Assembly: GCA_031266335.1 (NCBI GenBank)
Contig: JAISBF010000088.1
Span: 1-50,613 of the forward strand
Length of the DNA stretch: 50,613 bases
From: Verrucomicrobiales bacterium
GTDB lineage: Bacteria > Verrucomicrobiota > Verrucomicrobiia > Methylacidiphilales > JAAUTS01
Direction of reading: 5' to 3'
Below, piece after piece: positions 1 through 50,613 of the stretch. The notes beneath the pieces were generated by a model. It was not told where the DNA came from and searched no databases. It saw only the letters and a program-made list of their open reading frames with translations. A program made the translations under genes and the position numbers. Positions within the stretch are counted from its first letter, which is position 1; each line of letters begins with the position of its first letter.

Positions 1-55
1 CGTTGCGTTTTGGCGAAAATGGGCTGCTGATCGTGCCTGCCGGCGCTGAGCCACA

Positions 56-137
56 CTGGGAGCGCCGGCTTCCAGCCGGCAACGAAGCGGGCGGGACGCC
101 CGCGCTCCATAAGCCGGCAAGATGCCGGCGCTCCCAG
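56..137. repeat. Composite REP-like nested-hairpin element (CTGGGAGC...GCTCCCAG outer arms enclosing three GC-rich mini-hairpins)
   Basis: The outer arms CTGGGAGCGCCGGC / GCCGGCGCTCCCAG are perfectly complementary. Internal hairpins are GCCGGCttccaGCCGGC, GCGGGCGggaCGCCCGC (followed by GCTCCATA) and GCCGGCaagatGCCGGC. It is related to the elements at 12162, 16187 and 49813. Confidence 0.6.
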
Positions 138-146
138 TGAAGCGAT

Positions 147-251
147 GATTTTGGACGAGTCCGTAATGATTTTGGACGAGTACAAAACGATTTTGGACAG
201 ACCGATTACGCCAACGAACAGGCCGGTAACGCCAACGGACAGGCCGGTTAC
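147..251 (+). repeat. Five tandem units with an exact 21-bp period (GATTTTGGACGAGTCCGTAAT type, drifting to GCCAACGRACAGGCCGGTWAC)
   Basis: Units read directly at 147-167, 168-188, 189-209, 210-230 and 231-251. The region is non-coding, downstream of the minus-strand gene ending at 439. Confidence 0.7.
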
Positions 252-317
252 GGCGATGAATGCCTCCGTCCCGTTGGGGTTAAACTCCCTGAGAGTGCCG
301 GAGTAGTCCAGCGTTAT

Positions 318-438: not shown

Positions 439-1887
439 TCAAACCTGCTTCAGCCGGATACGATGCAGCGGGATAATCCCGTCGGCCTGTACCCACAGGG
501 TGAGCTGGCGCTGGCTGGCGCTGGCGGTGCCGGCGACTTGGAAGCCGCTGCCGGTCGGCGGGACGCTGACGGTGGCGCCTTGTTCGACGCTGAGTGTCAG
601 CGGGCCGGTCAGGCGGTCATACGCGGGTTGCACTTCCACCTGCCACGCGCCGTCGTCGGGCACGGTCAGCGTCAGCGGCACCCGCTCGCGGTCGGCGCGG
701 ATGAGCAGGCCGTAACAGGTGCGCCGGTATGGGTCCTCGCGCAATTCGACCAAATGCACCTCGCGGCCCGTCGCGCGCAACGGCGCTTCCAGCGCGGCGA
801 GGGGGAACTCCACGCCCTCGTCCAGCGCGCGCCACGGCAGCGCGGCGGCGCGGCGCGGGTGATTGTCAGCGCCGCGCGGCAAGGGCGGGCGCGTGGCGGC
901 GGGCGTCAGTTGGTACCAGAACACCACGAAGGAGACGGCGTTGGTTTTGTGCGCGTGCCACCATTTCTCGATGGTGACTTTGAGGCTTTTTTTGAAGCGC
1001 ACCGGGTCGGCGAGGTGGAAGCGGTAGAGGCTCATGTAGCTGGTGCCGTCCGGCCGTTTCTCCACCAGCGGCGCGCCGTAGCAGGGGTGGCAGAACTCGT
1101 GGTTGTAGCCCCAGGCGTTGTTGAAGTAATCCTCCGAGCCGGTGCCGGTGATGGTCGGCAGCGGGTCGCCGTCGATGAACAGCATGTCGTCGCCCTCGCC
1201 CCACCAACTGTCGGCGCGCGCCTGGATGTAATAAAAGCAGCCGGCGTAATGCCCGCTGCCGGTGGTGTCCAGCAGCACCAGGTTGTCGCGCCCGTCGAGG
1301 TTGTGGTAGTCGCGCTCGTTGCCCGGCACCTGCCCGCGCGCCGCCGGCTCGTGCCCGAACGCGGCGTGGAACAGCGCGGCGTTGGCCGGTTGCGGGCCGA
1401 GTTCGTAGTCGATGTGGTAGAAGAACAGCCGCACGGTGCGCAGTCCGTTGTTGTACACCTCGACGCGCGCCGCCTGGTGAAACGGCATCGGCCAATAGCA
1501 GTTGAACGCGCGCTCGTTGCCGCCCAGCGCCACCGGCAGCGAGTTGACGGCGTATTTGCGCGGGTAATAGAACGTCTCCGGCGACAGCGCGTGGCCGAGG
1601 CCGAAGAAGTCGCCGATGGGCACCTCCACGCTGGGCGTGGTCGCGCCGTCCCAATACATCCGCAGCACCAGGTCGCGCGCCACGGTGTCGTGGCCGGATT
1701 GGTCGAACTCGCGCAAGGTCGCCCAGAGGTGGGTGATTTTGCCCGGCCCGGCGGTGTCGAGCAGCACGGCGGTCTGGCCCGGTTCAATGTAGAAGAGGCA
1801 ATCGTCGTTGCCGCCGGCACGGTCGTAGCTGGAGGCGCGGCGGGTGACGGCGTCGCTGACCAGCGCGTAGTTTTCGAGTGGATTCAT
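439..1887 (-). CDS. DUF2961 / glycoside hydrolase family 172-like protein
   Basis: 482-aa ORF. It has the family hallmarks RASSYDRAGGNDD near the N-terminus and TGTGSEDYFNNAWG. High-GC codon usage. The 1127-aa plus-strand ORF is its antisense shadow. Confidence 0.85.
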   Translation of the reverse strand: MNPLENYALVSDAVTRRASSYDRAGGNDDCLFYIEPGQTAVLLDTAGPGKITHLWATLREFDQSGHDTVARDLVLRMYWDGATTPSVEVPIGDFFGLGHALSPETFYYPRKYAVNSLPVALGGNERAFNCYWPMPFHQAARVEVYNNGLRTVRLFFYHIDYELGPQPANAALFHAAFGHEPAARGQVPGNERDYHNLDGRDNLVLLDTTGSGHYAGCFYYIQARADSWWGEGDDMLFIDGDPLPTITGTGSEDYFNNAWGYNHEFCHPCYGAPLVEKRPDGTSYMSLYRFHLADPVRFKKSLKVTIEKWWHAHKTNAVSFVVFWYQLTPAATRPPLPRGADNHPRRAAALPWRALDEGVEFPLAALEAPLRATGREVHLVELREDPYRRTCYGLLIRADRERVPLTLTVPDDGAWQVEVQPAYDRLTGPLTLSVEQGATVSVPPTGSGFQVAGTASASQRQLTLWVQADGIIPLHRIRLKQV

Positions 1888-8309: not shown

Positions 8310-11300
8310 ATGAAATATATCCAAACACTGATGTTGGCCGCCGCGCTGTCGCTGGCGGCGGGTTGCTACGAGGCCGATTCCAATGACGGCACCACCTACC
8401 GCCTGCGCGTGTACGGGCCGCTGACGGTGACGCGGGACGCGAATGTCATTCGCATCACCGCCGCCGACAGCGGCAAGGCGCGCATCGTGTGGTCGAAAAT
8501 CCTGTCCGATTTCACCACGCTGCCCACCGTCAGCGAGCGCGACGTGGTGTCCGGCCAGGCCACGCTGAAGGCGCTGATGTTCGAGGGCGGGCGGGCGCTG
8601 CTGCCGGTGCTCAAGGACGGCGCGCGGACGGTGGAGGTGTACACGTTCGCCTCGCCGGCGGAGCTGGATGAATTTTTGCGGTCAGCGTCAGCGCAACTCG
8701 CGGGCGCGCTGTATCGCGGTCAGCGGGCGCACCCGTATTTCCTCGATTTGTGGGACCGCCACGGCATGAGCTTCTGGTATTCGCTGACCAACAAAAAACA
8801 GCCGGGGCTGACCGACGAGGACGATTTCGCGTTTTTCCGCAAGCACGAGCTTGGCATCAACATGGTGCATAATTTCGGCCCCATCATCGAGCGCGCTGAC
8901 CGTGACGGCCTCGGTTACAAGTTTAACAAATGGATGGATGTCTCGGCGTTCGTGTACGACAAGTATCCGCAGGACACCCACGGCGGCGACCCCGACATGA
9001 CACTGTGGAACGATTATTACGGCGATGTGCCGTTCGCCGCCAACCGGCTGGAGCAGGGGCAGTTGGCGGAGTTGCAGGCGTTTCTGAAGCAATACACCGA
9101 CGATGAATACATGCTGTCAGTCACCGACCCGCACGGCGAGACCGGGCCGGGCGCGCACGATTTAATCGGCATGCGCGGGCGGGACGAGCCTTCGCGGCAG
9201 GACCTCATTCATTATTTGCGCGACTTGCGCAACCTCACCCTCAGCGGCCTCGGCGAGCGTTGGTACGGCGACGCCGGTTATTTCAAATCGTGGGACGACG
9301 TGCGCTTCCCGCGCGAGCGGAATTTTTACGGCTGGCAGGACGGCGCGAGCCAGGATTTGTCCGGCACGTGGAAACTGCGCATCATGAAACGCGCTGACGG
9401 TGAGCAGGCGAAACTGTTCGACCCCGCGGTCAGCGACGCGAATTGGTTCCCACTGACCGTGCCCGGCACGCAGCCGTTCGCCAACCGGCTCGACCGCTCG
9501 GTCACCGACGGCGGCTGGTTGCGCTTCACCTTCAAGGCCGACGCGAATTTACTAGAAAAAGCCGCCGCCGGGCAGCCGGTCTATCTGACGCTGTGCCCGT
9601 TCAACTCGGCGCAATACGCCAACCCGGTCGGCATCTGGTTGAACGGCAAAAAACTCGCCGACCTGACCTTCGGCAACGGCGAGGAATGGGGGCAGTGGGA
9701 CGTGGCGAAAATTCTCACCGCCGGCGACAACACGCTGACGGTGTTCGCGCCGCTGGGCGTGATCAAGGGCCCGCGTTTTCTGACCACCAAGCTCGGCGAG
9801 CCGTTCCCGACCAGCGACCCGCTGGTCAACGCGCAGTTGTTCGACTTGCGCGAATGGATGACCGATTGCGTGGCGCGGTCGAACGCGCGCGCGATTGATT
9901 ACATTCGCGGCGCTGACGCTGACCGGCCGGTGAAGATGATGGCGTTCTACAGCATGATCGACGTGATGATGCCGCTGCTGGAGGAGCGCGGCGGCTACCC
10001 GCACTGCACCGGCGAGGGCGACTACTTCCGCCCGTGGTTCAAGCGCTACGGCTACCTGCGCGGCATCGAGGCGTCGGCGGAGCCGAGCCAGCCGGCGCCG
10101 GACATGTGGAACCTGAAGCGCAAGATGTTCACCTTCCAGATGGAAGGCGGCAACTCGATGGATTATTTCATCCACCTGCACAGCATCACGGCCAATCCGG
10201 AGATGAAGGAGTGGTATGAGCAGAACGTGCGTTACTATCAACTGATGGGCAAGTTCGATTTGAGAAAACCGGACGTGGCGCTGGCCCGCTCCTGGCGCGT
10301 GGATCGCGTGACGATTGCGTGGCCGACGGTGCCCGCGGACACCGGCTACCAGAGCGACCTCGGGCGCGGCGACATTTACCAGGCGCACTACAGTTATGTG
10401 TACACCTCGGAGCGCGAACTCGCCGACGGTCTGCTGAAAGATTACAAGGTTATCATTGACGGCAATTTTCACACGCTCGAGGCCGCTGACGTTGACCGCC
10501 TGGAACAATGGGTCGCTGACGGTGGCACGCTGGTGCTGAACCAGCGTTCGGGCCGCAACGACTTCCTGCGGGCGAACACCTGGCCGATTGAACAACTCAC
10601 CGGCTGCGTCGCGACTATCAGGCCGATGGGCGGCAAGGTGACGTTCGAGGCGAATCCCGAAATCCTGCAAGCCTACGCCGGCCAAACCTTCGCTGACACT
10701 GGCAACGTGACCGACTGGCAGCAGCACACGTATTACCACGACAGCATCTCGCTGGCGCCGAAGGACGGCGTCACCGTCAGCGTCATCGCGCGCTACGCGG
10801 ACGGCGCGCCGGCCATCGTCAGCCGGGCGCTGGGCAAGGGCCGCGTCGTCGTGCTCGGCAGCGCGTTCTACCGCGACAGCAGCGACATCAAGGGCTACTA
10901 CATCGGCAGCGACGCGCAGGCGGTGTTTTACAAGAATTTGCTGACCGACCTCGGCGTCGCGCCGAACATCGAGTGCGCCGACAAATGGCTGTGGGGCGAG
11001 CGCTACGTCAGCAACAACGGCTCCACCGAGATGTTAGTGCTCGGCAACAGCAACTTCGACCAGCCGCTGGTCAACGGCAGCGCCACCTGGGTGCTGGATT
11101 TCGCGCCCAAGCGCGTGTTCGACCCGGTGACCGGCGCGACGCTGCCGGTGAAGATTGACGGCAACAAGGTCACCATCAGCGGCCTCAACCTCGGCGTGTA
11201 CGAGATGAAATATTACGCCGTGGAGAAAACCGACTGGAGCGCGGCGGACACGGTCGGCCACTGGCTGTTCCGCCAGGGCCAGATGTGGCGCGAGGTGAAG

Positions 11301-12146
11301 ACCGGCCTCCAGGCGAAATACGCCGACTACTGGCCGGTGCAGCCGTTCGGCAAGTGGCAGGCCAAGCAATTCGGCAACGAGGCCGACGCGCGCGCCGCGC
11401 TGGCCGTGGATTATCCCGCCAACAGCGGCTGGCTTACCGCGTTCAAGGCCGACTGGGCGTCGCTGAACCTGCCGCTCAAGCCGTTGCAGTGGGGCGTGTA
11501 TCGCAAGGAAGTGGACATCGAGGCGGCCTGGTTCGACAACCTGCGCGGCGCCGAATTTTTGTGGAACGCCGTCGGCCCGCGCGGCATCGTCGAGTTGCAG
11601 GTCAACGGTCAGGTCATCGTCAGCGGCACCGCCATTGCCAACGACCAATTGCTCGGCGCGTTGCGGCCCGGCAAAAATCTCATCGCGATTCTGGTGCGCG
11701 CCGGGCAGGACGGCAACGCGGGGCTGATCGCGGACTTCGTGTTCGCGCCGGTGCCCGGCAAAAACGCGGAGTCGCTGACGGTGAACGACGATTGGACGGT
11801 GTATCCCGACGAAATCACGCCGCAGACGGTGAGCCTGCCGGCGAAAGGCGTGTGGCTGCTGGCGCGCAAGAGCATCACCATCCCCGATAAATACCAGGAT
11901 TGCGACGTGTGGCTCGAGGCGCCCGGCGCGCTGGTGGTCGCCGCCAACGGCCGCTCGCGCTACAACAGCAACATGTACGGCTCGCGCTATCGCCGCAACA
12001 CGCTGCTCATCAACATCACGCCGGATCTCAAGTTCGGCGCGGCCAACGATGTGTGGCTCGGCGGCAACAACTGGAACGACGGCATCCGCCCCGGCGAGAT
12101 GGATTTGCAGGGCGTGAAACTGTGGTTCGTGCCGCGCGGGAAATAA
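8310..12146 (+). CDS. Giant lipoprotein, family A (A1); putative GH42-like/beta-galactosidase-like glycosidase with amidotransferase-like and galactose-binding-like modules
   Basis: The in-frame ATG at 8310 gives MKYIQTLMLAAALSLAAGC (lipobox LAAGC). The 1278-aa product is collinear with 16248-20096. Segments such as WVADGGTLVLNQRSGRN and GKGRVVVLGSAFY resemble the GH42 trimerisation/GATase-like domain. The family assignment is tentative. Confidence 0.8.
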   Translation: MKYIQTLMLAAALSLAAGCYEADSNDGTTYRLRVYGPLTVTRDANVIRITAADSGKARIVWSKILSDFTTLPTVSERDVVSGQATLKALMFEGGRALLPVLKDGARTVEVYTFASPAELDEFLRSASAQLAGALYRGQRAHPYFLDLWDRHGMSFWYSLTNKKQPGLTDEDDFAFFRKHELGINMVHNFGPIIERADRDGLGYKFNKWMDVSAFVYDKYPQDTHGGDPDMTLWNDYYGDVPFAANRLEQGQLAELQAFLKQYTDDEYMLSVTDPHGETGPGAHDLIGMRGRDEPSRQDLIHYLRDLRNLTLSGLGERWYGDAGYFKSWDDVRFPRERNFYGWQDGASQDLSGTWKLRIMKRADGEQAKLFDPAVSDANWFPLTVPGTQPFANRLDRSVTDGGWLRFTFKADANLLEKAAAGQPVYLTLCPFNSAQYANPVGIWLNGKKLADLTFGNGEEWGQWDVAKILTAGDNTLTVFAPLGVIKGPRFLTTKLGEPFPTSDPLVNAQLFDLREWMTDCVARSNARAIDYIRGADADRPVKMMAFYSMIDVMMPLLEERGGYPHCTGEGDYFRPWFKRYGYLRGIEASAEPSQPAPDMWNLKRKMFTFQMEGGNSMDYFIHLHSITANPEMKEWYEQNVRYYQLMGKFDLRKPDVALARSWRVDRVTIAWPTVPADTGYQSDLGRGDIYQAHYSYVYTSERELADGLLKDYKVIIDGNFHTLEAADVDRLEQWVADGGTLVLNQRSGRNDFLRANTWPIEQLTGCVATIRPMGGKVTFEANPEILQAYAGQTFADTGNVTDWQQHTYYHDSISLAPKDGVTVSVIARYADGAPAIVSRALGKGRVVVLGSAFYRDSSDIKGYYIGSDAQAVFYKNLLTDLGVAPNIECADKWLWGERYVSNNGSTEMLVLGNSNFDQPLVNGSATWVLDFAPKRVFDPVTGATLPVKIDGNKVTISGLNLGVYEMKYYAVEKTDWSAADTVGHWLFRQGQMWREVKTGLQAKYADYWPVQPFGKWQAKQFGNEADARAALAVDYPANSGWLTAFKADWASLNLPLKPLQWGVYRKEVDIEAAWFDNLRGAEFLWNAVGPRGIVELQVNGQVIVSGTAIANDQLLGALRPGKNLIAILVRAGQDGNAGLIADFVFAPVPGKNAESLTVNDDWTVYPDEITPQTVSLPAKGVWLLARKSITIPDKYQDCDVWLEAPGALVVAANGRSRYNSNMYGSRYRRNTLLINITPDLKFGAANDVWLGGNNWNDGIRPGEMDLQGVKLWFVPRGK

Positions 12147-16186: not shown

Positions 16187-16233
16187 GGAGCGCGGGCGGT
16201 TGGCTTGCGATGACTGGCCAGGCCGGTGCTCCC
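16187..16233. repeat. Degenerate REP-like element (GGAGCGCGGGC ... GCCGGTGCTCC)
   Basis: It has imperfect outer complementarity to the REP family and lies in the B1-A2 spacer, the same relative position as the 12162 copy. Confidence 0.4.
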
Positions 16234-16247
16234 GACAAACTGATTTT

Positions 16248-19200
16248 ATGAAATGGAAAAACATAATATGGGTGGCGCTGGTAGTGGCCGGCGTCGGTTG
16301 GTTGGCTGGCTGTGACAAAGAGTCAGAGACGAAGAATTATAACCTGCGCGTGTACGGGCCGCTGACGGTGACGCGGAACGACCATGGCGCGCGCATCGCC
16401 GCCGCTGACGCTGACAAGGCGCGCATCGTGTGGTCGAAAATCTTCGCCGATTTCACCACACTGCCGACCGTCAGCGAGCGCGAGGTGCGGGCGGGGCGGA
16501 CGGCGTTGAAGGCGCTGGTGTTCGAGTCGGGCCGCGCACTGCTGCCGGTGTTGCAGGATGGAGCGAGCATCGTGACGGTGTACTCGTTTGACACGCCGGC
16601 GGCGCTGGACGAGTTTCTCCAGTCATCGTCAGCGCAGTTGGCGGGCGCGAAATATCATGACCGGCGGGAACATCCGTATTTCCTCGATTTGTGGGACCGG
16701 CATGCGATGAGTTTCTGGTATTCGCCCAACCGCACGGGCGGCCACGCCAAGCCGGGCATGACCGACGACGGCGATTTTGATTTTTTCCGCCAGCACCAGC
16801 TCGGTGTCAACGCGGCGGGCGTCAACGGCCCCATCGCCGAGCGCGCGCGCCGCTACGACCTCGGCTACAAGTTCAACCGGTGGATGGACGTGTCGTCGTA
16901 TGTGTATGACAAATATCCGCAGGACACGCACGTCGGCGACCCGGACTCGACGCATTGGAACGATTACTACGGCGATGTGCCGTTCGCGGAGAACCGGCTC
17001 GAGCGCGGGCAGGGCGCGGATTTGCAGGAGTTTTTGCGGCAGTACGCTGACGATGACCACCTGATGTCGGTCACCGACCCGCACGGCGAGACCGGGCCGG
17101 GCGCGGCGGATTACATGGGCTGGCGCGCGCGCGACGAAAGCTCGCGGCGGTCGTTTATCGCGTATTTGCGTGACACGCGGCAGCTCACCGTCAGCGCGCT
17201 GGGCGAGCGGTGGTACGGCGACGCGCAGCGGTTCAAGTCGTGGGACGACGTGCAATTCCCGCGCGAGCGCGATTTCTACGGCTGGCAGGACGGCGCGAGC
17301 CAGGATTTGTCGGGCGAATGGAAACTGCGCGTCATGAAACGCGCTGACGGTGAGCAGGCGAAATTGTTCGACCCGGCGGTCAGCGACGCGAACTGGTTCC
17401 CGTTCGCCATGCCGGGGACGGAGGCGTTCGCGTTCCGCTTTTGGCGCGAGACGACCGACGGCGCGTGGCTGCGGTTCACGTTCAAGGCGGACGCGAATTT
17501 GCTGCGGAAGGCCGCTGACGGTCAGCCGGTCTATCTGACCGTGTGCCCGTTTAACTACGCATTGTACGCCAACCCGACCAGCGTGTGGTTCAACGGCCAA
17601 AAGCTCGGCGACTTGACGCTGGGTTACGGCGAGGAATGGGGACAATTTGACGTGACGAAAATCCTGACCGCCGGCGACAACACGCTGACGGTGTTCGCGC
17701 CGAACGGCCACATCAAGGGGCCGCGCTTTTTGACGACGAAGCGCGCCGAGGAATTTCCGACCCCTGACAAGCAACTGAATGCGCGGCTCTACGACCTGCG
17801 CGAATGGGTCGCCGACAACACGGCGCGCAGCAACGCGCGCGCCATCGAAATCATCCGCGGCGCCGACGCCGACCGGCCGGTGAAGATGATGGCGTTCTAC
17901 TCGATGATCGACGTGATGATGCCGTGGCTGGAGCAACTCGGCGGCTACCCGCACTGCACCGGCGAGGGCGCGTATTTCCGCCCGTGGTTCAAGCGCTTCG
18001 GCTATCTGCGCGGCATCCAGAGTTCCGCCGAGCCGTCCGGGCCGGCGGGGGACCTGCGCGGGTTGCGGCGCATTTATTTCACGCTGCAAATGGAGGGCGG
18101 CAACGCGCTGGATTATTTCATCCACCTGCACAGCGTCACCGCCGATCCCGAAATGAAGGCGTGGTTCGAGCGCAACGCCGGTTACCTGCAACTGATGGGC
18201 CGCTTCGACCTCAAAAAGCCGGAGGTGGCCATCGCGCGGTCGTGGCGCATCGAGCGCGTGTTCATCCCGTGGCCGACCATGCCCGCTGACAGTGGCTATC
18301 AGAACGACCTCGGGCGCGGCGACATGTACCAGGCGCATTACAGTTATGTGTACACGTCTGAGCGCGAGCTGGCCGACGGCCTGTTGAAAAATTATCGGGT
18401 CATAATTGACGACAATTTCCACACGCTCAATCCCGCTGACGTTGACAACTTGGAAAAATGGGTCGCCGACGGCGGTACGCTGGTGCTGAACCAGCGCAGC
18501 GGGCGCAACACGTACGAGGAGGCGAACTCGTGGCCGATTGAAAAACTCACCGGCTGCGTCGCGACCGTCCGGCCGATGGGCGGCAAGGTGACGTTCGAGG
18601 CGAATCCCGAAATCCTGAAAGCCTACGCCGGCAAGACGTTTGCCGACACCGGCAATGTGACCGACTGGCAGCAGCACACGTATTATCACGACAGCATTTC
18701 ATTGGCGGCGAAGGACGGAGTCACCGTCAGCGTCATCGCGCGTTACGAAGACGGCGCGCCGGCCATCGTCACGCGGCAACTCGGCAAGGGCCGCGTCATC
18801 GTGCTCGGCAGCGCGTTCTACCGCGACAGTTCGGATGTTGACGGTTATTATGTTGGTAGTCACGCGCAGGCGCAATTTTACCAGCACCTGCTCGGCGAAC
18901 TCGGCGTGCAGCCGGTCATCGTCAGCGAGCAGGATAGTCTGTGGAGCGAGCGCTTTGTCAGCAACAACGGCAGCACTGAGCTGCTGGTGCTGGGCAACGC
19001 GCACGGCACCGAACCGTTGAAAAGCGGTAGCGCCGTGTGGGAACTGGACTTCGCGCCGCGCCGCGTGTTCGACCCGGTGACCGGCGCGACGCTGCCGGTG
19101 AAAATCGAGGGCCGCAAGGTCACCGTCAGCGTCCAGGATTTGTTGCCCTACGATCTGCGCTATTTCGCGGTGGAACGCACCGACGGCACGGCGGTGGACG

Positions 19201-20096: not shown

Positions 20097-20135
20097 ACAA
20101 CTGACCTTGTAAAATTACGGCGTCAAGCTCCGGAC

Positions 20136-20342
20136 TTGACTCTGGCGGAACTCAAACGCCAGTTGATTAGACTGGAACGCTTGCCGCCATCGGTTAGGCA
20201 TTACGGTGGTTTGGCTATACACGAAGACGCTCTGTGTCCGGGAGACGTCATCATGGACAATCTTTCTGCGCATCACGGTACGCAAGTCGGCAAACGGATT
20301 CATGCTGCCACCTGGTTCCATTCCCGCGTTTACCATCCGTAA
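20136..20342 (+). pseudogene. IS630-family DDE transposase remnant (C-terminal fragment, frameshifted and truncated)
   Basis: PGDVIMDNLSAHHGTQV matches the IS630/Tc1 motif D-N-x-x-x-H around the catalytic region. The expected LxFLPxYSP continues in another frame (LVPFPRLPS), then homology stops. There is no N-terminal part. Confidence 0.6.
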
Positions 20343-20426
20343 TCCAAAAAAATTTTAAAAAGATGTTGCAATTTTCTCGTCATCCAACTAATATCCACAT
20401 TGGAAATTCAACCAAAGGAAAATGAT

Positions 20427-30227: not shown

Positions 30228-30242
30228 AAGTAAAATGGGGCA

Positions 30243-30340
30243 GTAAAAGAGGGCAGTCTTCATTTCTTGACAGATGAGCAGAATTGAATGAAGCGAATAA
30301 AAAGAATTTATCAAAAAACGAAGATTGACCCCTTTCTCCC
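30243..30340 (+). repeat. Palindromic ~100-bp repeat, copy 4
   Basis: GTAAAAGAGGGCAGTCTTCATTTCTTGACAGATGAGCAGAATTGAATGAAGCGAATAAAAAGAATTTATCAAAAAACGAAGATTGACCCCTTTCTCC. Confidence 0.8.
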
Positions 30341-30382
30341 CTTTCTATCGGCGTCAGCGGCTTGGTGAATCGTCCCTACGCC

Positions 30383-31711: not shown

Positions 31712-31763
31712 GATTCCAGAGTTAACCACGGTTTGAACGGAAATATCAAGCTGCTAATGAATA

Positions 31764-31859
31764 GGAAAAAAAGGGTCAGTCTTCATTTCTTGACAGATGG
31801 GCAGAATTAAAAGAGGCGAACGAAAAAAATTTGTCAAAAATGAAAATTGCCCCCTTTTT
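31764..31859 (+). repeat. Palindromic ~100-bp repeat, copy 5
   Basis: GGAAAAAAAGGGTCAGTCTTCATTTCTTGACAGATGGGCAGAATTAAAAGAGGCGAACGAAAAAAATTTGTCAAAAATGAAAATTGCCCCCTTTTT. Confidence 0.8.
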
Positions 31860-31915
31860 GTCGGACATATCCCCTTTGCTTTTGTTCGCGAGATGGCTAT
31901 AGCATACAAAACATT

Positions 31916-32953
31916 ATGAAATTCCCGTCTCATGATAAATCCGTGTCATCCGGCATATCCCGCCGCAAGGCCATTCAAATGTTCGGACTCGGTATGATCG
32001 CCTCCACCGCTTTTGGCGGTCGTCTGAATGCAGCCGGGAGCGCGTCCACCACGAAGCGTCCGCCCGCAAGAGAGGGCAATGCGGAGACTTGGCGTTTCAT
32101 GATCGGGAACATCGAAGCCATTTCCGTTTGCGACGGTTTTGGCACCTTCAGCCCCGCCCATACGGTCTGGCCGAAGGACGCCACCGAAAGCGGCATTGCC
32201 AGGCAACTCGAGGCCGCCTTCCTTCCCGCTGGCAAGGCAATTATGTCTTACAATGTGCTGGTATTGCGTACCGGGAAAGAAGTCATCCTCGTTGATACCG
32301 GATGCGGCGCGGTCGCCGATACCGACAGCGGCCGGCTCATCGCCAACCTCGCGACCGTAAACCTCCGTCCGCAGGACATCACGGCTGTGGTCATCACCCA
32401 TGGACACAGCGATCACATCGGCGGGTTGCTGGACGCCGCCGGAGCACCGACATTCACGAACGCCCGGCTCTTCATTCGGAAGAAGGAACTGGACTACTGG
32501 TTCTCCGAAAACCCGGACACCTCCACGATGATAGTAGATGAAACCGCGCAGAAATGGACGGTCGGGAGCGCGCGAAAATACCTCGGGCCGCTCAAAGATG
32601 CCTTCCTGCTGGTCGAGCCTGGACAGCGGATCCTCGACTGCATTGAAATTGTGGATACCGCCGGGCACACACCCGGTCATGCCTCGCTCCTTATCCGATC
32701 GGGAGAGGAAACGCTCTTTCACATGGCGGACGTTACTCATCACAGCATCCTCTCGTTCGCCAACCCGGAATGGAGACTCAGCTTCGACTCGATTCCGGAA
32801 CTGGCGGCAACCACCCGTCGAAAGATTCTCACCTGGCTTTCCAGTGAGCGTACCCGCGCCCTCAGCTATCATGCGCCTTTCCCCGGAGTCGCCCACATTG
32901 CTGCCGATGGGAGAGGCTTTCGCTGGGTGCCGGAGCATTGGTCGATCGTGTAG
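31916..32953 (+). CDS. MBL-fold metallo-hydrolase with Tat-type signal
   Basis: ITHGHSDHIGG (HxHxDH). The N-terminal SRRKAIQMFGLGMIASTAFG is twin-arginine-like. The ATG at 31916 is in frame with the track ORF 31847. Confidence 0.85.
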   Translation: MKFPSHDKSVSSGISRRKAIQMFGLGMIASTAFGGRLNAAGSASTTKRPPAREGNAETWRFMIGNIEAISVCDGFGTFSPAHTVWPKDATESGIARQLEAAFLPAGKAIMSYNVLVLRTGKEVILVDTGCGAVADTDSGRLIANLATVNLRPQDITAVVITHGHSDHIGGLLDAAGAPTFTNARLFIRKKELDYWFSENPDTSTMIVDETAQKWTVGSARKYLGPLKDAFLLVEPGQRILDCIEIVDTAGHTPGHASLLIRSGEETLFHMADVTHHSILSFANPEWRLSFDSIPELAATTRRKILTWLSSERTRALSYHAPFPGVAHIAADGRGFRWVPEHWSIV

Positions 32954-32966
32954 TAAAGATTCACCA

Positions 32967-33068
32967 AAAGGGGTAAAAAGGTATTAGTCTTCATTTTTTG
33001 ACAGATGAACAGAACTGAAAGAAGTAAATGAAAGGAATCAGTCAAAAATGAAGACTGACTCCTTTCCC
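32967..33068 (+). repeat. Palindromic ~100-bp repeat, copy 6
   Basis: AAAAGGGGTAAAAAGGTATTAGTCTTCATTTTTTGACAGATGAACAGAACTGAAAGAAGTAAATGAAAGGAATCAGTCAAAAATGAAGACTGACTCCTTTCCC. Confidence 0.8.
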
Positions 33069-33077
33069 AAAATAATC

Positions 33078-33107
33078 TGTCAAGAAATGAAGGCTGCCTC
33101 TTTTTAC
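33078..33107 (-). repeat. Isolated inverted arm of the palindromic repeat
   Basis: TGTCAAGAAATGAAGGCTGCCTCTTTTTAC is the reverse complement of the left-arm consensus GTAAAAGAGGGCAGTCTTCATTTCTTGACA. Confidence 0.7.
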
Positions 33108-33113
33108 ATTAAT

Positions 33114-33401
33114 ATGTTCAAAAAACATGGCCCACAAAAAGTTCAACACATCATTGATAATTATATAGTACAAACTCGTGACCGATATACAGTTGAATAC
33201 CTAAAGGATAACAAAAAAGTAACAATTGGAGTTGATTTTGGATTTATTATATATGTTTTCCAAGGTTCAATGCGTGGATGGTTAAATCTAAAAGAATATG
33301 CAATGGGACAAGACGAACAAATTATTGTGTTAGGGAGAATTGTGGCAGGCTTGAATGCGATGGGATGCGAAGTTGAAGTATGCTCTGGGAACGCACCTTA
33401 A
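33114..33401 (+). CDS. Small hypothetical protein (95 aa), low GC
   Basis: The ORF begins after the repeat arm (MFKKHGPQKV...) and has AT-rich codon usage. It is bracketed by inverted repeat arms at 33078-33107 and 33421-33448. Confidence 0.4.
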   Translation: MFKKHGPQKVQHIIDNYIVQTRDRYTVEYLKDNKKVTIGVDFGFIIYVFQGSMRGWLNLKEYAMGQDEQIIVLGRIVAGLNAMGCEVEVCSGNAP

Positions 33402-33420
33402 ATTTGTACAGCAACCAACT

Positions 33421-33490
33421 GTAAAAGAGGTCTCTTCATTTCTTGACATCATGCTTATTCAAATTATGAGCTAAAAAGCGAATAGAATGG
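33421..33490 (+). repeat. Palindromic repeat, copy 7 (left arm intact, remainder degenerate)
   Basis: GTAAAAGAGGTCTCTTCATTTCTTGACA is followed by diverged sequence that retains AAAAGCGAATA from the central region. Confidence 0.6.
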
Positions 33491-33598
33491 CTGCTCTGTA
33501 TCACCGTCAGCGGCAACAAACATCCGCAACTATGTTGGATTGCTGCAATTATCAATATTCAATAATCAATAAAAAATTTCGCCACCGTCAGCGATTAT

Positions 33599-33775
33599 TC
33601 AACCCACCATATGCGCAGCCAGGCGCCGCACGAACGGGCTGTTTTTCAAACGCCGCGCGAGATAGGCGTGAAATTCATCGAAACTCATGTTGGAAGTTTC
33701 GGCATAAATTTTCGCTTGAAGGTCACGCTTCATGGCCAAGCAATCAAAGTTTTTTTCTTTTTTAATCGCTTTCAT
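33599..33775 (-). CDS. Small 58-aa protein translationally coupled to the PIN gene (possible antitoxin/partner)
   Basis: Hand-translated as MKAIKKEKNFDCLAMKRDLQAKIYAETSNMSFDEFHAYLARRLKNSPFVRRLAAHMVG. It is not in the supplied track (<60 aa). Its ATG overlaps the PIN stop by 14 nt. Confidence 0.45.
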   Translation of the reverse strand: MKAIKKEKNFDCLAMKRDLQAKIYAETSNMSFDEFHAYLARRLKNSPFVRRLAAHMVG

Positions 33776-34226
33776 ATTTCACCAGTTCTTTCGGATTTCT
33801 GATTTCCAACATAGCATAGCCCATTTTCAAATTCACGCCATTATAGCCTTTGATGCGGTCTAAATTGACTATGTGCTTGAAATTCCAACTCGCCAACACA
33901 TCTGCCTTGTACAAAGTGGCAAGGGCGATGTGATAGCAATCTTCCAAACTGGTTTTGCCCACGACTTTTTCGGCAATATATGCGTTGGCAAGTCTGCGGG
34001 CTTCCGGCGTTAGCGTCACATATTCAAAACAATCATCGGCATAATTTTGCAATAAATTTTTCACTTGTGCCGGCGCGTCCTGTAATTCGTTATCTAAAAT
34101 ATCCGAGATCACAAAAACGATTTCTTTATTTTCAAGCCGCTGAAATAATTTTTGCGTGGCTTCTGCAAACTCGTCATCGAAAAAACCGCCCACCACCGAA
34201 GTGTCAATGTAAATGCGTTGTTTCAT
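33762..34226 (-). CDS. PIN-domain (VapC-like) ribonuclease toxin
   Basis: MKQRIYIDTSVVGG (first acidic residue), then DCYHIALATLYKADVLASWNFKH, which is typical of a PIN C-terminus. The ATG at 34226 lies inside the longer track ORF. Confidence 0.75.
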   Translation of the reverse strand: MKQRIYIDTSVVGGFFDDEFAEATQKLFQRLENKEIVFVISDILDNELQDAPAQVKNLLQNYADDCFEYVTLTPEARRLANAYIAEKVVGKTSLEDCYHIALATLYKADVLASWNFKHIVNLDRIKGYNGVNLKMGYAMLEIRNPKELVKYESD

Positions 34227-34632
34227 AAAATATTCAGCGGATAAAATTGGTGCGTTACGCGACTGGTTCGCCCACAGGTAACGGGACGGTATCCTTGGTG
34301 GCGGAAGTAAGCGGCATCCCTCTGACCGTGTCATCGAGCGAGAAAGTCAACGATTTGAGGGATATTTCCATAGTGAATCACCGTTAATTTAGCCTGCTTC
34401 TCGAACTGATAAAAGAAAAAATTAGCCAGCCTGTTATCCTCACGCAAAGCCCAATGTAGAGCGATGGGTCAATATCAGCAAGCCGATTTCCCTGCGCCGC
34501 GCCCGCTCCTGCAAGGTCGAATTCTCAGTTATACGCCAAAATTCCATGCTGCTGATTTCGCGTGCCAAGGGGTCAAAAATTGTGATTGGCAGTGAGGCGA
34601 TGATTTGCTTTATATTGCTGCAAATATTAAAT

Positions 34633-43910: not shown

Positions 43911-44654
43911 TCAGGCGGTGGCGCGGGGTTGCAGGTAACGGACGCTGACGGTCAGCGCCAACAGTCCGCCGGCCAGCAGGAGCCAGGCGGACGGTTCGGG
44001 GATTACCTCCCATTGGTAGGTGAGGGTCAGCAGATTATAAATGCTGTCGCGTTGGGCGCTGAGGGCGGACGCGGAGTAATCGACCGCGCCGATGCCCTCG
44101 GTAAACAGCGCGTCGGCCACGAAGATGTCAAAGGTCGCGCTGTACAGTCCGGGCGCACTGTCAGCCGGCAGGGTGAAATAAGGGTGCCACATCCCGCCGT
44201 TCCATAACACCTGGTCGCCGATGTCGGAGAAAACTTCGGCGAAACGGTTGTAGGCGGAATTGTAGTTCCAGGCTTGCAATAAATCCGCACTGGCAGCGGT
44301 CAGCTTGATGCCGAGGGAACGATTCGATGGCAAATAATCACCCGTGGCGGCAAAGCCGAACTGGCAGTTGATTAACGCGCCGCTGCCGCTGTCCGGGTCA
44401 ACCATGCCGTACCAAGCATCGCCGGGGCTGACGTTGGCCGGTATGTTGGAGTTTATCGCGTGCCAGTAATCCAGCGAACCCAGCACCGGCGCGGTGCCGG
44501 AATTGAACATCAATGTCAGCGTGTCGCCGCTGACCGTCACCGCGGACATAATCATGCCGCCCTGGTCGTCGGGGCTGGGCAGGGCGATGGCGTGGACTTG
44601 GCTGACCGTGAGGCCGGCGAGCAGCGGGAGCAGGGGCAGGAATAATTTGCGCAT
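43911..44654 (-). CDS. PEP-CTERM sorting-domain secreted protein
   Basis: Signal peptide MRKLFLPLLPLLAGLTVSQVHA. The C-terminal IPEPSAWLLLAGGLLALTV + basic tail is a PEP-CTERM anchor. Confidence 0.8.
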   Translation of the reverse strand: MRKLFLPLLPLLAGLTVSQVHAIALPSPDDQGGMIMSAVTVSGDTLTLMFNSGTAPVLGSLDYWHAINSNIPANVSPGDAWYGMVDPDSGSGALINCQFGFAATGDYLPSNRSLGIKLTAASADLLQAWNYNSAYNRFAEVFSDIGDQVLWNGGMWHPYFTLPADSAPGLYSATFDIFVADALFTEGIGAVDYSASALSAQRDSIYNLLTLTYQWEVIPEPSAWLLLAGGLLALTVSVRYLQPRATA

Positions 44655-46896: not shown

Positions 46897-47148
46897 GAAA
46901 AGACCGCCTTTACACATGTAAAAACCGTTTTATCACCTGTAAACCCCATTTTGACACGTGCAAAAATCGTTTTGTCACGTGTAAAGACCGTTTTGTCATG
47001 TGCAAAAATGATTTTGTCATGTGTAAAAATCATTCTGACACGTGCAAAAACGGGTTTGACACGTGTAAAACTCATTTTGTCACGCGTAAAAATCGTCCGG
47101 TCACGTGTCAAAAGCACCTTGTCACCGATCAAAATCCCCACGTTTTCA
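46897..47148 (+). repeat. Array of about 11-12 tandem units with an exact 21-bp period, consensus GYAAAAAYCGTTTTGTCACGT
   Basis: Units lie at 46918, 46939, 46960, 46981, 47002, 47023, 47044, 47065, 47086 and 47107 (each exactly 21 nt), plus degenerate end units. The array is AT-rich and ends 45 nt upstream of the ATG at 47194. Confidence 0.85.
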
Positions 47149-47193
47149 GTCTTAACATCCTGAATATCAACAACTAACCAAGGAAAATCACAT

Positions 47194-47856
47194 ATGTCCC
47201 ACCGAAACATCCCCGCCGAACCCCACGCCCTGTTGGGCTACAGCCGGCTCATCGAAACCACCGCCCAGGCCAACCAGAAAACTGACCAATGGGATCTCGA
47301 CGCCCGGCGCATCCTCGCCCTCAAAGCCGTCAACGACCACTTGGAACTCGCCCTGCAAGCCAACGACGCCAAGGAAACCAGAAACCACTTCACCGTCGTC
47401 GCCAAGGACGAGGCCGTCAGCGCCTTGTTGGTCATCCTGCGCGGTTTCATCAACTACCTCATCGGCAAGACCGACAAAATCACCGACGAAATCCTGCAAC
47501 AACTCGGCATCCCTCCGCGCCATCACGTCAAGCACGAGCCGCTGCCCCCGCCGACCGACGCCCCAGTCGTCGTCATCCACACCGGCCACAACCACGACGC
47601 CGACTTCTACTTCTTCAACAACCAGGCCGGCCACCCCACTAAGTACTTGGCCGCCGCGAACTGCCACGCCGTATTGCTTAAATACCGGTTACAAGGCACC
47701 GACGACTGGCAACAACAGACCATCACCAGAAAACATCTAACCAAACACTTCGGCCTCGAAGCGCAAGGCAAAGCCCTGGAAGCCGTCGCCGCCTGGCTCA
47801 GCCCCACCCTCCAACCCGGCCCCTGGAGCGACCCCGAAACCGCCATCGTCACCTGA
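47194..47856 (+). CDS. Hypothetical protein (220 aa)
   Basis: AAGGA RBS 9 nt upstream. Consistent C-ending codon usage shared with the downstream autotransporter. No family recognised. Confidence 0.6.
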   Translation: MSHRNIPAEPHALLGYSRLIETTAQANQKTDQWDLDARRILALKAVNDHLELALQANDAKETRNHFTVVAKDEAVSALLVILRGFINYLIGKTDKITDEILQQLGIPPRHHVKHEPLPPPTDAPVVVIHTGHNHDADFYFFNNQAGHPTKYLAAANCHAVLLKYRLQGTDDWQQQTITRKHLTKHFGLEAQGKALEAVAAWLSPTLQPGPWSDPETAIVT

Positions 47857-47892
47857 ACCCCATTCAAACCAACCACCAACCCACCATCTACT

Positions 47893-50613
47893 ATGAAAAA
47901 AACAACCCTGCTATTAACCCTCCTCAGCGCCTCCGCGTTGAATGTCTTCGCAGACCCCAAAGTCGTCACCAGCGGCACCGAGGCCGAAGCGGACAAAACC
48001 TATACGGGCGACTCCACCTACGCCGCCCTGCAAGTCAGCGGCAGCGAGACTTGGTACAGCGGCACCCGCCTCACCCTCAGCGGCATCACCGTTAGCAACA
48101 CTGGTCGCTATGGCGCCTACGTTTATAACCAGGGCCGATTGGACTTGCACGACATCACCAGCGTCGGCGGAGCGGCGCAAAATGGTTACGCCGCGTATGC
48201 AACCGGTTCCTCCATCATGACCATCACCGGCGGCACCTTCACCTCTGACTGGCTTAGCTATGGCGTCTATTACACCGGCTCCTCAATTGGCCGAGTGGCA
48301 AACGTCCACATCAATACCACGGACCTTGCTAGCTACGGGCTCGTCGCCGCCTTGCACAGTCAGGTGGACGGTCAAAACCTCACTATCGAGACCTTCGGCA
48401 CTTCCGGTTACGGCGTCTTCTACGCCGTCGCCACCGGTGCCATCAGCGGCTTGACCGTGGTCACGCATAACATGAGTGGGTTTGGCATCGCCGTGGAAGG
48501 CAACGGCACTTTGTTGGAAGTGGAGAATTTCACCGTGCTGACCGAGGGCAATAGAGCGAAAGGCGCCGGGGTCGGTTCGTCAACTGGCGCGACATTCGGC
48601 ATCGGTGACGGCACCCTAATCCTGCGTAGCGGCACCATCGTCACTACCGGTTCCAATAGCGCCGGGGCAATGACTGCGGGCGAGGGCAGCAACGCGCTGT
48701 TCATGCGCGACATGACCATCGAAACCCACGGACAGGATGCGGCGGGAATTGTTACTAGCCAAGGCCCCAACGGCCACGACAAAACCAACACCATCGTCAT
48801 GGACGGCGGCTCTGTCTATGCGGAAAACGGCCCGGCAGTAAGGATTGGTATCATGGGCACGACCACCAATACCGACCCCGATGTCGTGGCCAGTCAGGGC
48901 GGCACCTATAATATTACCCTCACCGGCAGCGCGCAACTCAGCGGCACCTCCGCCTTTGAGATTGTCAACCGAATCACCGGCACCCTCGCCGACGGCGAGC
49001 CGTACACCGTGGACACTATGACCATCGCCAACGTCACCGTGGAAGATGGCGTCACCCTCACCGGCGACACCAACATCAAAGGCAGCAGCACCGCCACCCT
49101 CAACCTCGACGACAGCACTCTCACCGGCAACATCAATGCCATCGAGGACACCAACCTCACCCTCAGCGGCAGCCACGGCGCGACCATCACCGGCACCGTC
49201 AGCGGTAACGACAATGCCATCATCGACCTAACCGTCAGCGGCACCGGCAGCACCATCCTCGGCGACATCACCCAGAGCGGCAGCAGCGCCGTCACCGTCA
49301 TCATTGACAACAGCGCCACCGGCCAAGGCGGCTACCACGGCGGCAACCTCATCACCGGCGAAGACAGCGCGTGGACTTTCGACAAAAACAGCCACGGCAA
49401 CTACGGCAAAAACGACGGAGTATGGAACATCGGCGACTACGAAGTCATCTTCGATAACATGACCCACACCGGCACCCTCAACCTCAACGTCAACACCGAC
49501 ACCGGCGCCGGCGGCTCCATCCACGTAACCGGCACCGCTGACGGCGAAGGCACCGTCCACATCGACACCACCGGCGACGGCAAACTCAACCCCAACGACG
49601 TACTCCCCGGCATTGTCAGCGGTGAAGGCACCGAACACTGGCAATGGGATCCCATCGACTGGGGCATCGACACCATCATCAAAGACGGCGACCACTTCGT
49701 AAAATCCGGCGTCAGCCCGGCGGGCGCGGTCTTGAACAGCAGCGTGGCGATCCAACAAGCCATGTGGTTCGCGCAGCAAAACAGTTTGCTCAAGCGCATG
49801 GGCGAGTTGCGCTATGGAGCGCGGGCGTCTCGCCCGCTGGCGGACAAGGATGTCCGCGTTCCATATAACCTCATCGAAAACCTCTGGCTCAGAAGCTACG
49901 GCCAACAGCTAAACATCGGCAGCCAAGTAGCGGGCCGCGCCTACGAACAACTCATCTACGGCGTCGATCTCGGCACGGATCACAAGTTCACCATCAGCGC
50001 TGACAGTGACCTATACTTGGGCGTGTACGCCGGCTACGGCCGCAGTGACATAGACTACCGCACCCCCGGCACTGACGGTGAGATCAACAGTTACTACGGC
50101 GGCCTCTACGCCACCTGGCTCCACAGCAGCGGCTTCTATATCGACGCCACCTTCAAGGCTGCCAGTGTCAACAACGACCTGAAAGCTCCGTATGGCAACG
50201 CCCAACTCAAAGCCAGCTACAGCGACGTGAACATCGGCGGCAGCCTCGAACTCGGCAAGAAGTTCACCTTCACCGATGACTGGTTCATAGAACCTCAATT
50301 CCAAGTCAACTACCTGCACATCCTCGCCGAAGATTACACCGCCGGCCCGATGACCATCAGCACCCAAGACCTCGACGCCCTGCAACTCCGCATCGGCTCT
50401 TTGTTTGGCCGCACCCTCAAGCTCGCCAACGGCGGCGCGTTACAACCCTACGTGAAGATCAGCGGCGTCGAAACCATCAGCAGCGGCGGCACCATCAGAA
50501 ACGGCTACCAACACACCCGCGCCAACACCGACGGTGCCCGCGCCGAACTCGGCGCCGGCCTCATCTGGCAACTCGACACCAACAACCAACTCCACCTCGA
50601 CTACGAAGCCTCC
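47893..50613 (+). CDS. Autotransporter (signal peptide, beta-helical passenger, beta-barrel translocator); 3'-partial, runs off the window
   Basis: It is not in the ORF track because there is no stop in the window. Hand translation shows it open for 907 codons from the ATG at 47893. The N-terminus is MKKTTLLLTLLSASALNVFA and the passenger has Gly/Thr-rich repeats. The junction is LLKRMGELR...NLWLRSYGQQ, followed by barrel strands (YLGVYAGYGRSD, YYGGLYATW, FIEPQFQVNY). Confidence 0.85.
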   Translation, partial: MKKTTLLLTLLSASALNVFADPKVVTSGTEAEADKTYTGDSTYAALQVSGSETWYSGTRLTLSGITVSNTGRYGAYVYNQGRLDLHDITSVGGAAQNGYAAYATGSSIMTITGGTFTSDWLSYGVYYTGSSIGRVANVHINTTDLASYGLVAALHSQVDGQNLTIETFGTSGYGVFYAVATGAISGLTVVTHNMSGFGIAVEGNGTLLEVENFTVLTEGNRAKGAGVGSSTGATFGIGDGTLILRSGTIVTTGSNSAGAMTAGEGSNALFMRDMTIETHGQDAAGIVTSQGPNGHDKTNTIVMDGGSVYAENGPAVRIGIMGTTTNTDPDVVASQGGTYNITLTGSAQLSGTSAFEIVNRITGTLADGEPYTVDTMTIANVTVEDGVTLTGDTNIKGSSTATLNLDDSTLTGNINAIEDTNLTLSGSHGATITGTVSGNDNAIIDLTVSGTGSTILGDITQSGSSAVTVIIDNSATGQGGYHGGNLITGEDSAWTFDKNSHGNYGKNDGVWNIGDYEVIFDNMTHTGTLNLNVNTDTGAGGSIHVTGTADGEGTVHIDTTGDGKLNPNDVLPGIVSGEGTEHWQWDPIDWGIDTIIKDGDHFVKSGVSPAGAVLNSSVAIQQAMWFAQQNSLLKRMGELRYGARASRPLADKDVRVPYNLIENLWLRSYGQQLNIGSQVAGRAYEQLIYGVDLGTDHKFTISADSDLYLGVYAGYGRSDIDYRTPGTDGEINSYYGGLYATWLHSSGFYIDATFKAASVNNDLKAPYGNAQLKASYSDVNIGGSLELGKKFTFTDDWFIEPQFQVNYLHILAEDYTAGPMTISTQDLDALQLRIGSLFGRTLKLANGGALQPYVKISGVETISSGGTIRNGYQHTRANTDGARAELGAGLIWQLDTNNQLHLDYEAS
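49813..49865. repeat. REP-like element embedded in frame inside the autotransporter gene
   Basis: TATGGAGCGCGGGCGTCTCGCCCGCTGGCGGACAAGGATGTCCGCGTTCCATA has the same architecture as 12162-12222. It is translated as YGARASRPLADKDVRVPY. Confidence 0.75.

Follow-up and report, generated by a model that had tools for sequence, protein, structure and literature searches.

A hyper-abundant DNA word in a Verrucomicrobiota lineage and its tentative reading as a DNA uptake sequence

We describe a short DNA word, with core CGCTGAC (GTCAGCG when read on the other strand) and extended form CGCTGACSGTG, that occupies an entire metagenomic contig of a Verrucomicrobiales bacterium (GenBank assembly GCA_031266335.1, contig JAISBF010000088.1, 50,613 nucleotides, which as a whole we call the window). 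The word field runs from 1 to 50613 on both strands and comprises 193 cores and 69 extended words. We propose, with a probability of about 0.45, that the word is a lineage-specific DNA uptake or self-recognition sequence spread by molecular drive, its closest analogues being the DNA uptake sequence (DUS) of Neisseriaceae and the uptake signal sequence (USS) of Pasteurellaceae. The probability is put no higher because uptake, as the process that reads the word, is entirely what we infer. We found no description of it in full-text searches of the literature that covered the word itself and its complement, the sister word introduced below and, for Verrucomicrobia, uptake sequences or competence; a survey of 2025 still has uptake sequences in Neisseriaceae and Pasteurellaceae only. 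What is new is a hyper-abundant DUS/USS-like word in a new phylum, distinguished by its nearly all-coding placement, its very high density and its overriding of codon bias.

The word and its action at the DNA level

Exact counting gives 93 copies of CGCTGAC and 100 of GTCAGCG on the plus strand, that is, 3.8 cores per kb or one per 260 bp on average, together with 33 extended 11-mers on the plus strand and 36 on the minus strand, and the word tops the k-mer ranking of the whole window for every k from 7 to 12. Being short, non-palindromic, present at least once per kb and far over compositional expectation, it has the first properties that are looked for in a DUS or USS. An example of the canonical 11-mer is CGCTGACGGTG at 564..574 on the plus strand, within a DUF2961/GH172 gene; at 661..677, on the minus strand, CACCGTCAGCG is followed by the overlapping dimer GTCAGCGTCAGCG, with cores at 665 and 671 that are offset by 6 bp. 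Such 6-bp-offset dimers number eight, the others lying at 3565/3571, 8681/8687, 9911/9917, 16403/16409, 23656/23662, 39119/39125 and 40056/40062. Cores also meet in opposite orientations, as in the head-to-head palindromic pair CGCTGAC-n-GTCAGCG at 43943..43957 (a second such pair is at 12682-12696) and in the hairpin-capable inverted pair GTCAGCG-n6-CGCTGAC at 44515..44534, inside the open reading frame (ORF) 43911-44693 on the minus strand.

It is noted that the first-pass annotation of this contig had already called the core hyper-abundant, and its regional counts prove right within about 10%: 34 against an exact 31 in 1-6200, 18 against 18 in 8310-12146, 25 against 23 in 12153-16175, and about 30 against 29 in 23216-28789. 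The 11-mer positions that it listed are right within a few bases (564 rather than 557, 6077 rather than 6068, 5294 rather than 5285), and its overlapping dimers are all real, with those at 39119/39125 and 40056/40062 to be added. Its GC content of about 65% throughout has to be replaced by 60.8% for the whole window, where native genes have 60-69% GC and 72-90% GC at third codon positions (GC3).

Alignment of all copies, with refinement of a weight matrix, yields the asymmetric motif g-n-C-G-C-T-G-A-C-G-g-T-G-A, with about 12-14 informative positions, the right half of which, GGTGAC, echoes the core GCTGAC; no conserved bases were found in the flanks of the aligned copies outside this motif. 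The 11-mer is strict at positions 1-5 (CGCTG), with 5 single-mismatch variants observed versus about 8.5 expected, while single-mismatch variants at positions 6-11 are 4- to 18-fold enriched and the one-off variants of the 7-mer mostly stand 1.5- to 2.9-fold over expectation. Enriched near-miss variants are as expected of decaying or nascent words. Neighbouring words avoid spacings of 10-25 bp (4 words versus 13 expected in the window) and favour spacings of 25-50 bp (29 versus 18 expected, P = 0.005), a pattern that may mirror the beta-strand spacing or periodicity of the Leu-Thr-Val and Val-Ser-Gly contexts in which the word is encoded.

The excess of the word is not explained by the proteins that it helps to encode. 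Genes were called by GC3, and two nulls were run on the 24 high-GC genes (42.7 kb): a synonymous shuffle, which keeps each protein and its codon usage, and a codon permutation. The core occurs 182 times in these genes, versus 35.3 +/- 4.8 in the synonymous shuffle (maximum 48 in 300 runs) and 12.5 under codon permutation; for the 11-mer the numbers are 66, 6.8 and 0.3, respectively. Since a 5-fold excess of the core and a 10-fold excess of the 11-mer survive the synonymous shuffle, the excess is real and is accounted for by neither protein sequence nor codon usage.

The reading frames and codons lead to the same point. Relative to the genes the cores split into 102 sense and 81 antisense copies, with 60 in sense frame 2 (x-Ala-Asp), 57 in antisense frame 0 (Val-Ser-x), 42 in sense frame 1 (x-Leu-Thr), 18 in antisense frame 2 and 6 in antisense frame 1. 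Among all called genes of the window, no core stands in the frame that gives an internal in-frame TGA, and it is in this frame that the word supplies gene ends: its TGA serves as stop codon of the AraC-family gene 23216-24106 (word at 24101..24107 on the plus strand, TGA at 24104-24106), of gene 29080-29808 (word at 29803-29809, TGA at 29806) and of gene 41042-43096 (word at 43091-43097, TGA at 43094). The Ala codon GCT is used at 2.6% generally and at 60.6% in the context C-GCN-GAC, versus 11.8% if the preceding base is not C, and Ser between GTC and G is encoded by AGC in 56 of 58 cases. Because the switch to GCT depends on the preceding base and both strands are used, translational codon-pair effects are ruled out. 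As in DUS and USS, the word takes the tolerated frames and sits at poorly conserved residues, inflating the corresponding tripeptides.

These results bear on the explanation that the word arises secondarily, from the protein sequences of beta-rich secreted glycoside hydrolases, from their codon-pair usage or from their paralogous repeats. It is true that amino-acid context carries part of the excess, the synonymous null of 35 being three times the codon-permutation null of 12, and that word density peaks in the large secreted enzymes. Against this stand the 5- to 10-fold excess left after the synonymous shuffle, the use of both strands and five frames with a rare-codon switch set by the preceding base, perfect copies in AT-rich intergenic DNA, and the sister word in unrelated housekeeping genes of a relative, so that we regard the explanation as very improbable. 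An artefact of a protein motif or of codon usage was rejected on the shuffles, the codon context, the intergenic copies and the copies in unrelated genes; an artefact of paralogs or tandem repeats was likewise rejected, as Tandem Repeats Finder gave no arrays at the words, which are distributed among about 27 genes from many families.

On all of this the first-pass annotation holds up. Its claim that the word uses five of six frames and lacks the TGA frame agrees with the frame count, to which the three gene stops are added; its claim of balanced orientation without polarity of the Chi or KOPS (FtsK-orienting polar sequences) type agrees with 93:100 and with every 5-kb bin; and its view of a DNA word rather than a protein motif is borne out by shuffles, codon context and word-less orthologues. 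The codon-preserving shuffle that it had named as a refuting check was run, and the enrichment stays. The word acts at the DNA level.

Conservation, turnover and dialects

The sole match in a scan of GTDB genome contigs is the syntenic locus L001 (contig JAISDC010000066.1 of the metagenome-assembled genome (MAG) Gx485_bin111), with about 95.7% DNA identity over 16 kb. At 67 aligned genic cores we found 5 differences, versus 21 +/- 5 at frame-matched random 7-mers of the same genes; none of 2000 resamplings of such 7-mers reached as few differences, and word sites have changed about 4 times less. Words are also gained and lost: 65 are common to both strains, 5 occur in the window only and 9 in L001 only, mostly by single-base changes. 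The divergence between the two is over-dispersed along the alignment (variance/mean 4.7), which is compatible with recombination without being specific to it.

Maintenance is also seen in two tandem glycoside-hydrolase-like paralogs on the plus strand, A1 (8310..12146, 18 cores, of which 17 are scored in the codon alignment) and A2 (16200..20096, 19 cores), which are only 77% identical in nucleotides and 71% in protein. Words stand at the same alignment column in 10 of 17 and 10 of 19 cases, where naive independence predicts about 16%. The words of A2 that are not shared with A1 mostly come from a synonymous GCT/GCC choice or from replacements at variable residues, and the pair AADSGK versus AADADK, which had been given before as an example of non-homologous placement, is reproduced. 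In four genes compared with word-less orthologues, 6 of 23 words are encoded over the same tripeptide that other codons encode in the orthologue, such as Ser TCC to AGC in Val-Ser-Gly, and the other 17 lie at poorly conserved residues that differ across homologues. Findlay and Redfield found that Haemophilus and Neisseria uptake sequences prefer poorly conserved residues (PMC2817400).

Related loci carry the same word, a sister word or neither. With expectations from an order-2 Markov model, which are inflated by the word itself and make the observed/expected ratios conservative, CGCTGAC stands at 193/25, 85/10 and 30/4 in the window and in L001 and L004 of the same lineage, where CGCTAAC is not enriched. 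In L002, whose GH20 protein is 63% identical and whose GC content is 54.5%, CGCTGAC is not enriched (6/3.7) and CGCTAAC is found at 25/1.0, in housekeeping genes (P-type ATPase, PrmC, RNase III, XerC-like). In L130, with a pilin-like protein 76% identical, the values are 0/0.8 and 10/0.4, and in L129, with a pilin-like protein 80% identical and different neighbours (FTR1, MacB), they are 10/3.6 and 9/0.7. L204, with a DUF2961 protein 58% identical, has CGCTGAC at 6/1.0 and CGCTAAC at 0/0.3. The other Verrucomicrobiota or Opitutaceae-like loci, L125-L128 and L205, have neither word.

The motif refined from L002, G-n-CGCTAAC-g-g-C-G-A, has the architecture of the window word with two transitions (G/A and T/C), so that two dialects of the kind known from DUS and USS are seen, CGCTGAC-G-g-T-G-A in the window, L001 and L004 versus CGCTAAC-g-g-C-G-A in L002, L130 and L129. 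From the counts in the relatives and the sister motif it follows that the trait is clade-specific, that it is bound neither to one locus nor to paralogs there, and that its sequence has diverged from one sister lineage to another. Note that all sequence of the G dialect stems from a single 50-kb locus and two copies syntenic with it; the extent covered is about 27 genes of the contig plus loci of three relatives, one of them with housekeeping genes that bear the sister word. L129 (Ga0466703_412531) contains both CGCTAAC and CGCTGAC at about 0.9 per kb each, and it may have an intermediate or relaxed (CGCTRAC) specificity.

A process other than uptake could produce conserved sites and dialects. 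The word could be like HIP1, the highly iterated palindrome of cyanobacteria, in that its excess would be produced or maintained, with no part played by uptake, by a sequence-specific modification or repair system that turns near-matches into words; an orphan or type IIG/III-like methyltransferase acting together with biased short-patch repair or nicking is one example. The density of about 1/260 bp and the coding location recall cyanobacterial HIP1; word sites are conserved above background; strict positions 1-5 with enriched variants at positions 6-11 would fit active conversion at a strict core; and the dialects differ by two transitions, G/A and T/C. By contrast, the word is non-palindromic and, with its 12-14 informative positions, longer than typical methyltransferase targets, on which account the HIP1-like alternative of the first-pass annotation fits less well. 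A simple sink by deamination of 5-methylcytosine, from CGCCGAC to CGCTGAC, was tried and is excluded, as CGCCGAC is itself above expectation (61 observed versus 36-43 expected) and the entire C-GCY-GAC context is about 5-fold enriched; a HIP1-type palindrome over a methyltransferase target was also rejected on the asymmetry of the motif. Vsr-type repair, moreover, runs from T to C, opposite to the direction that makes words, and no DNA methyltransferase or Vsr gene is found among the genes of the window. We regard conversion of this kind as unlikely.

It is also conceivable that the word is a cis-acting chromosomal site, bound by an abundant protein of the clade (a nucleoid protein, a condensin-loading factor, or a replication or repair scaffold) and kept by ordinary selection. 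Its length and asymmetry are like those of protein sites, it has a half-repeat look (GCTGAC-GGTGAC) with eight 6-bp-offset dimers, its neighbour spacing is non-random, and conservation with dialects fits co-evolution with a binding protein. The spacing, however, may just reflect beta-strand periodicity, and no nucleoid-associated or chromosome-organising protein is known to use a GC-rich 12-mer within genes at a density of about 4 per kb. Between 95%-identical strains individual sites come and go freely, so that their position seems not to matter. We consider such a site quite unlikely.

Distribution along the contig and other elements of the contig

Within the window, 183 of the 193 cores lie in called genes, that is, about 95% are coding, and the words are spread across about 27 genes of at least 15 families. 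The word-dense blocks mostly have 2.4-10 words per kb per gene, with the highest density in large secreted enzymes, whereas genes at 29-33 kb, two-component genes (the regulators among them) and low-GC islands have 0-1.5 per kb. The 93:100 strand balance over the window is repeated in each 5-kb bin, so that on this one 50-kb contig the word is found in both orientations as a DUS or USS would be; a polar motif of the Chi or KOPS type was rejected for this lack of skew. Repetitive extragenic palindromic (REP) elements or miniature inverted-repeat transposable elements (MITEs), which are intergenic, hairpin-forming and at least 20 nt long, were rejected as well, the words being of 7-14 nt and about 95% intragenic.

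Perfect copies also occur outside genes. One minus-strand 11-mer (CACCGTCAGCG on the plus strand) stands isolated at 33502..33512 in AT-rich intergenic DNA of 38% GC, and in the same spacer another, also on the minus strand (33583-33593), is part of the terminator-like hairpin TCGCTGACGGTGGCGA at 33579..33594, which is followed by a T-run and is the window's sole terminator-like hairpin with a single word in intergenic DNA.

There are three low-GC stretches in the window. The island at 20097..23004 (35-42% GC) has one core word, and in strain L001 another segment, of about 1.5 kb, takes its place. The region 28930..34545 is mosaic and word-poor, with genes of 58-61% GC at 0-1.4 words per kb, AT-rich spacers, palindromic elements and a PIN-domain gene. 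The islands 20097-23004 and 32954-34545, at 35-48% GC, are almost word-free, and the latter carries small ORFs and a PIN-domain gene in what resembles a toxin-antitoxin pair. The low-GC islands and the mosaic region at 29-34 kb are thus word-poor, the result for the islands being confounded by base composition.

This scarcity would also suit an intracellular self/non-self tag that attenuates nuclease or defence activity on resident DNA, Chi-like but without polarity, and so would the restriction to one clade with dialects; with such a tag, dense words on native DNA would be selected for. Known Chi-type recognition, however, is orientation-dependent and skewed to one strand, in contrast to the 93:100 found here, and viral contigs chosen for a pair of words are not specially enriched in the word (2.5-fold in one family, versus 2.4-fold in the remaining loci that this pattern brought up). 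We take such a tag to be improbable.

The viral contigs came from scans for two 11-mers within 30 bp. In the metagenome-wide scan the matches listed were mostly GC-rich contigs with protein-coding tandem repeats. The viral scan gave a family of phage-like IMG/VR contigs of 58-62% GC (L136, L137, L138, L144, L156, L159, L165, L167, L168, L169, L174, L182, L185 and L201) that share a gene ending in ...FTVSGSRTVSA*; this end results from two CGCTGACSGTG words at a distance of 7 bp, and within each contig both copies have the same S base. Because the enrichment of the word in this family equals that of other loci picked by the same pattern, it carries no information on the host.

The proteins of the window include the glycan-degrading enzymes GH20, GH172/DUF2961 and SASA esterases, four GH2/GH42-like paralogs of about 1,278-1,376 aa (8310-20096 and 34546-38673, three of them in tandem), a NagB/PIG-L/AraC cluster and an autotransporter; for the gene at the left end no close orthologue was found elsewhere. 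Also encoded are, in a cluster at 43192-46578, a PilS-like histidine kinase, a REC-Fis response regulator, a PEP-CTERM-like protein and an H-X9-DG prepilin-type protein, in synteny with the A-dialect relatives L129 (1-3272) and L130 (22-3318). As far as predicted proteins can tell, the cluster shows that type IV pilin-like genes exist in the clade, and nothing ties it to DNA uptake. The H-X9-DG prepilin-type gene beside the PilS-like kinase is the only competence-relevant gene of the window, and it does not count as evidence of competence.

Several other elements were noted. A palindromic element of about 95 bp with 21-bp terminal inverted repeats (AAAAGGGGTCAGTCTTCATTT ... AAATGAAGACTGACCCCTTTT) is present three times, at 23005-23087, 29853-29942 and 31769-31857, in AT-rich spacers bordering variable low-GC segments, with several copies in L001; it looks like a MITE, a REP element or a bidirectional terminator. 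At 46913-47113, just upstream of gene 47194-47856 and the autotransporter gene, there are 9.6 copies of the 21-bp unit TTTGTCACGTGTAAAAATCGT with a CACGTG core, and three shorter 21-bp arrays of other units lie at the left contig end (145-252, 369-412); these are possibly regulator-binding arrays. The intergenic region of the 46913-47113 array also holds a perfect microsatellite, (CGCGCTCA) x4, at 46749-46780. Rfam and tRNA scans of the window gave no matches.

Uptake as a possible reading and comparison with known systems

If the word is an uptake sequence, a DNA-binding part of a type IV pilus or competence apparatus would prefer fragments that bear it, and the conspecific DNA so imported, on homologous recombination, would act as a molecular drive. 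The drive would fix mutations that create or improve a word where protein function tolerates them and would restore decaying words. It would explain why native genes are saturated in both orientations and in each frame without an internal stop, why an avoided codon is used where it completes a word, why word sites diverge more slowly, and why the word seems scarce in recently acquired DNA; the two-letter dialect shift between sister lineages would arise from co-evolution of receptor and word. Six properties of the word resemble those of DNA uptake sequences more than those of any other class known so far: a motif that is asymmetric and about 12-14 nt long, at least one copy per kb, strand balance, use of all tolerated frames, maintenance with turnover, and apparent scarcity in foreign-looking DNA together with dialects.

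Several observations weigh against uptake. Intergenic DNA is word-poor, with about 95% of words in ORFs; in a scan of 28000-47900 only 2 of 17 terminator-like hairpins contain the word, one intergenic and one inside an ORF; no association of words with terminators or inverted pairs was found, the four close inverted pairs being all intragenic. The commonest frame of the word needs the strongly avoided codon GCT, at odds with the preferred codons of DUS and USS, and the core density of 1/260 bp is several-fold above that of any known uptake sequence. Natural transformation in Verrucomicrobiota is not documented in the literature searched. Finally, any sequence-specific process in favour of the word would likewise bring about conservation, dialects and an apparent depletion in foreign DNA. 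The DUS/USS-like reading of the first-pass annotation stands for length, density and frames and, with the caveat on base composition, for scarcity in low-GC islands; the sister dialect is a further DUS-like trait, one that the annotation could not have seen. It falls short for terminators and inverted pairs and for preferred codons.

Still more tentatively, the clade may practise sequence-specific natural transformation via g-n-CGCT[G/A]AC-G-g-[T/C]-G-A in at least two dialects, which would be the first such case outside Proteobacteria and the densest known. Sequence-tagged uptake is known only in two proteobacterial families, Neisseriaceae and Pasteurellaceae (bioRxiv 10.1101/2025.10.24.684340). 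An independent case in the PVC group (Planctomycetes, Verrucomicrobia, Chlamydiae), with clear dialects and a very strong signal, would show that genome-wide tags evolve repeatedly, and it would suggest that conspecific recombination is frequent in this uncultured lineage, which is common in the environment. Comparing the dialect with candidate receptors or methyltransferases across MAGs offers a computational route to the protein that reads the word. The word is, besides, a sharp marker for binning contigs of the clade and for spotting foreign DNA in them. Should the mechanism be other than uptake, a new sequence-specific process would be required, able to prevail over codon bias at thousands of sites; how words as abundant as HIP1 arise is itself still debated.

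Among known systems, the Neisseriaceae DUS is a sequence of 10-12 nt, AT-GCCGTCTGAA, read by the minor pilin ComP. Like it, the word is non-palindromic, of about 12 nt, present at about one per kb or more in both orientations and apparently scarce in foreign DNA, and it has lineage dialects differing by one or two bases between related taxa, dialects being a hallmark of DUS (PMC3630211). Unlike DUS, it has another sequence, occurs in another phylum and has a core density about 4-fold higher; about 95% of it lies in ORFs, versus 34.5% for N. meningitidis DUS (PMC2817400), and it has no association with terminators or inverted repeats, whereas about half of all DUS/USS, and more than 90% of those in inverted repeats, lie in predicted terminators (bioRxiv 10.1101/2025.10.24.684340). 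H. influenzae has 1,471 USS and N. meningitidis has 1,892 DUS (PMC2817400), densities that the word equals or exceeds.

The Pasteurellaceae USS has a 9-nt core, AAGTGCGGT or ACAAGCGGT, that is, two family-level variants, as with the word. The two agree in being mostly coding (65% for the H. influenzae USS), in protein-tolerated frames, in poorly conserved residues and in raised tripeptide frequency (PMC2817400), and single-mismatch variants are enriched in both. They differ in that the frames of USS and DUS track preferred codons (PMC2817400), while the commonest frame of the word forces the rare GCT. The flanks of USS are AT-rich, while the flank of the word is G-g-T-G-A.

HIP1 (GCGATCGC) of cyanobacteria is an 8-nt palindrome that overlaps methyltransferase sites, while the word is asymmetric, of about 12-14 nt, with no link to methylation detected. 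HIP1 and the word have in common that they are hyper-abundant, at about one per few hundred bp, in and outside genes, conserved and lineage-specific. Chi and KOPS or AIMS (architecture-imparting sequences) are also over-represented oligomers, read by DNA-processing machines; they are far sparser and strongly skewed to one strand per replichore, in contrast to the word, which stands at 93:100 with no local skew.

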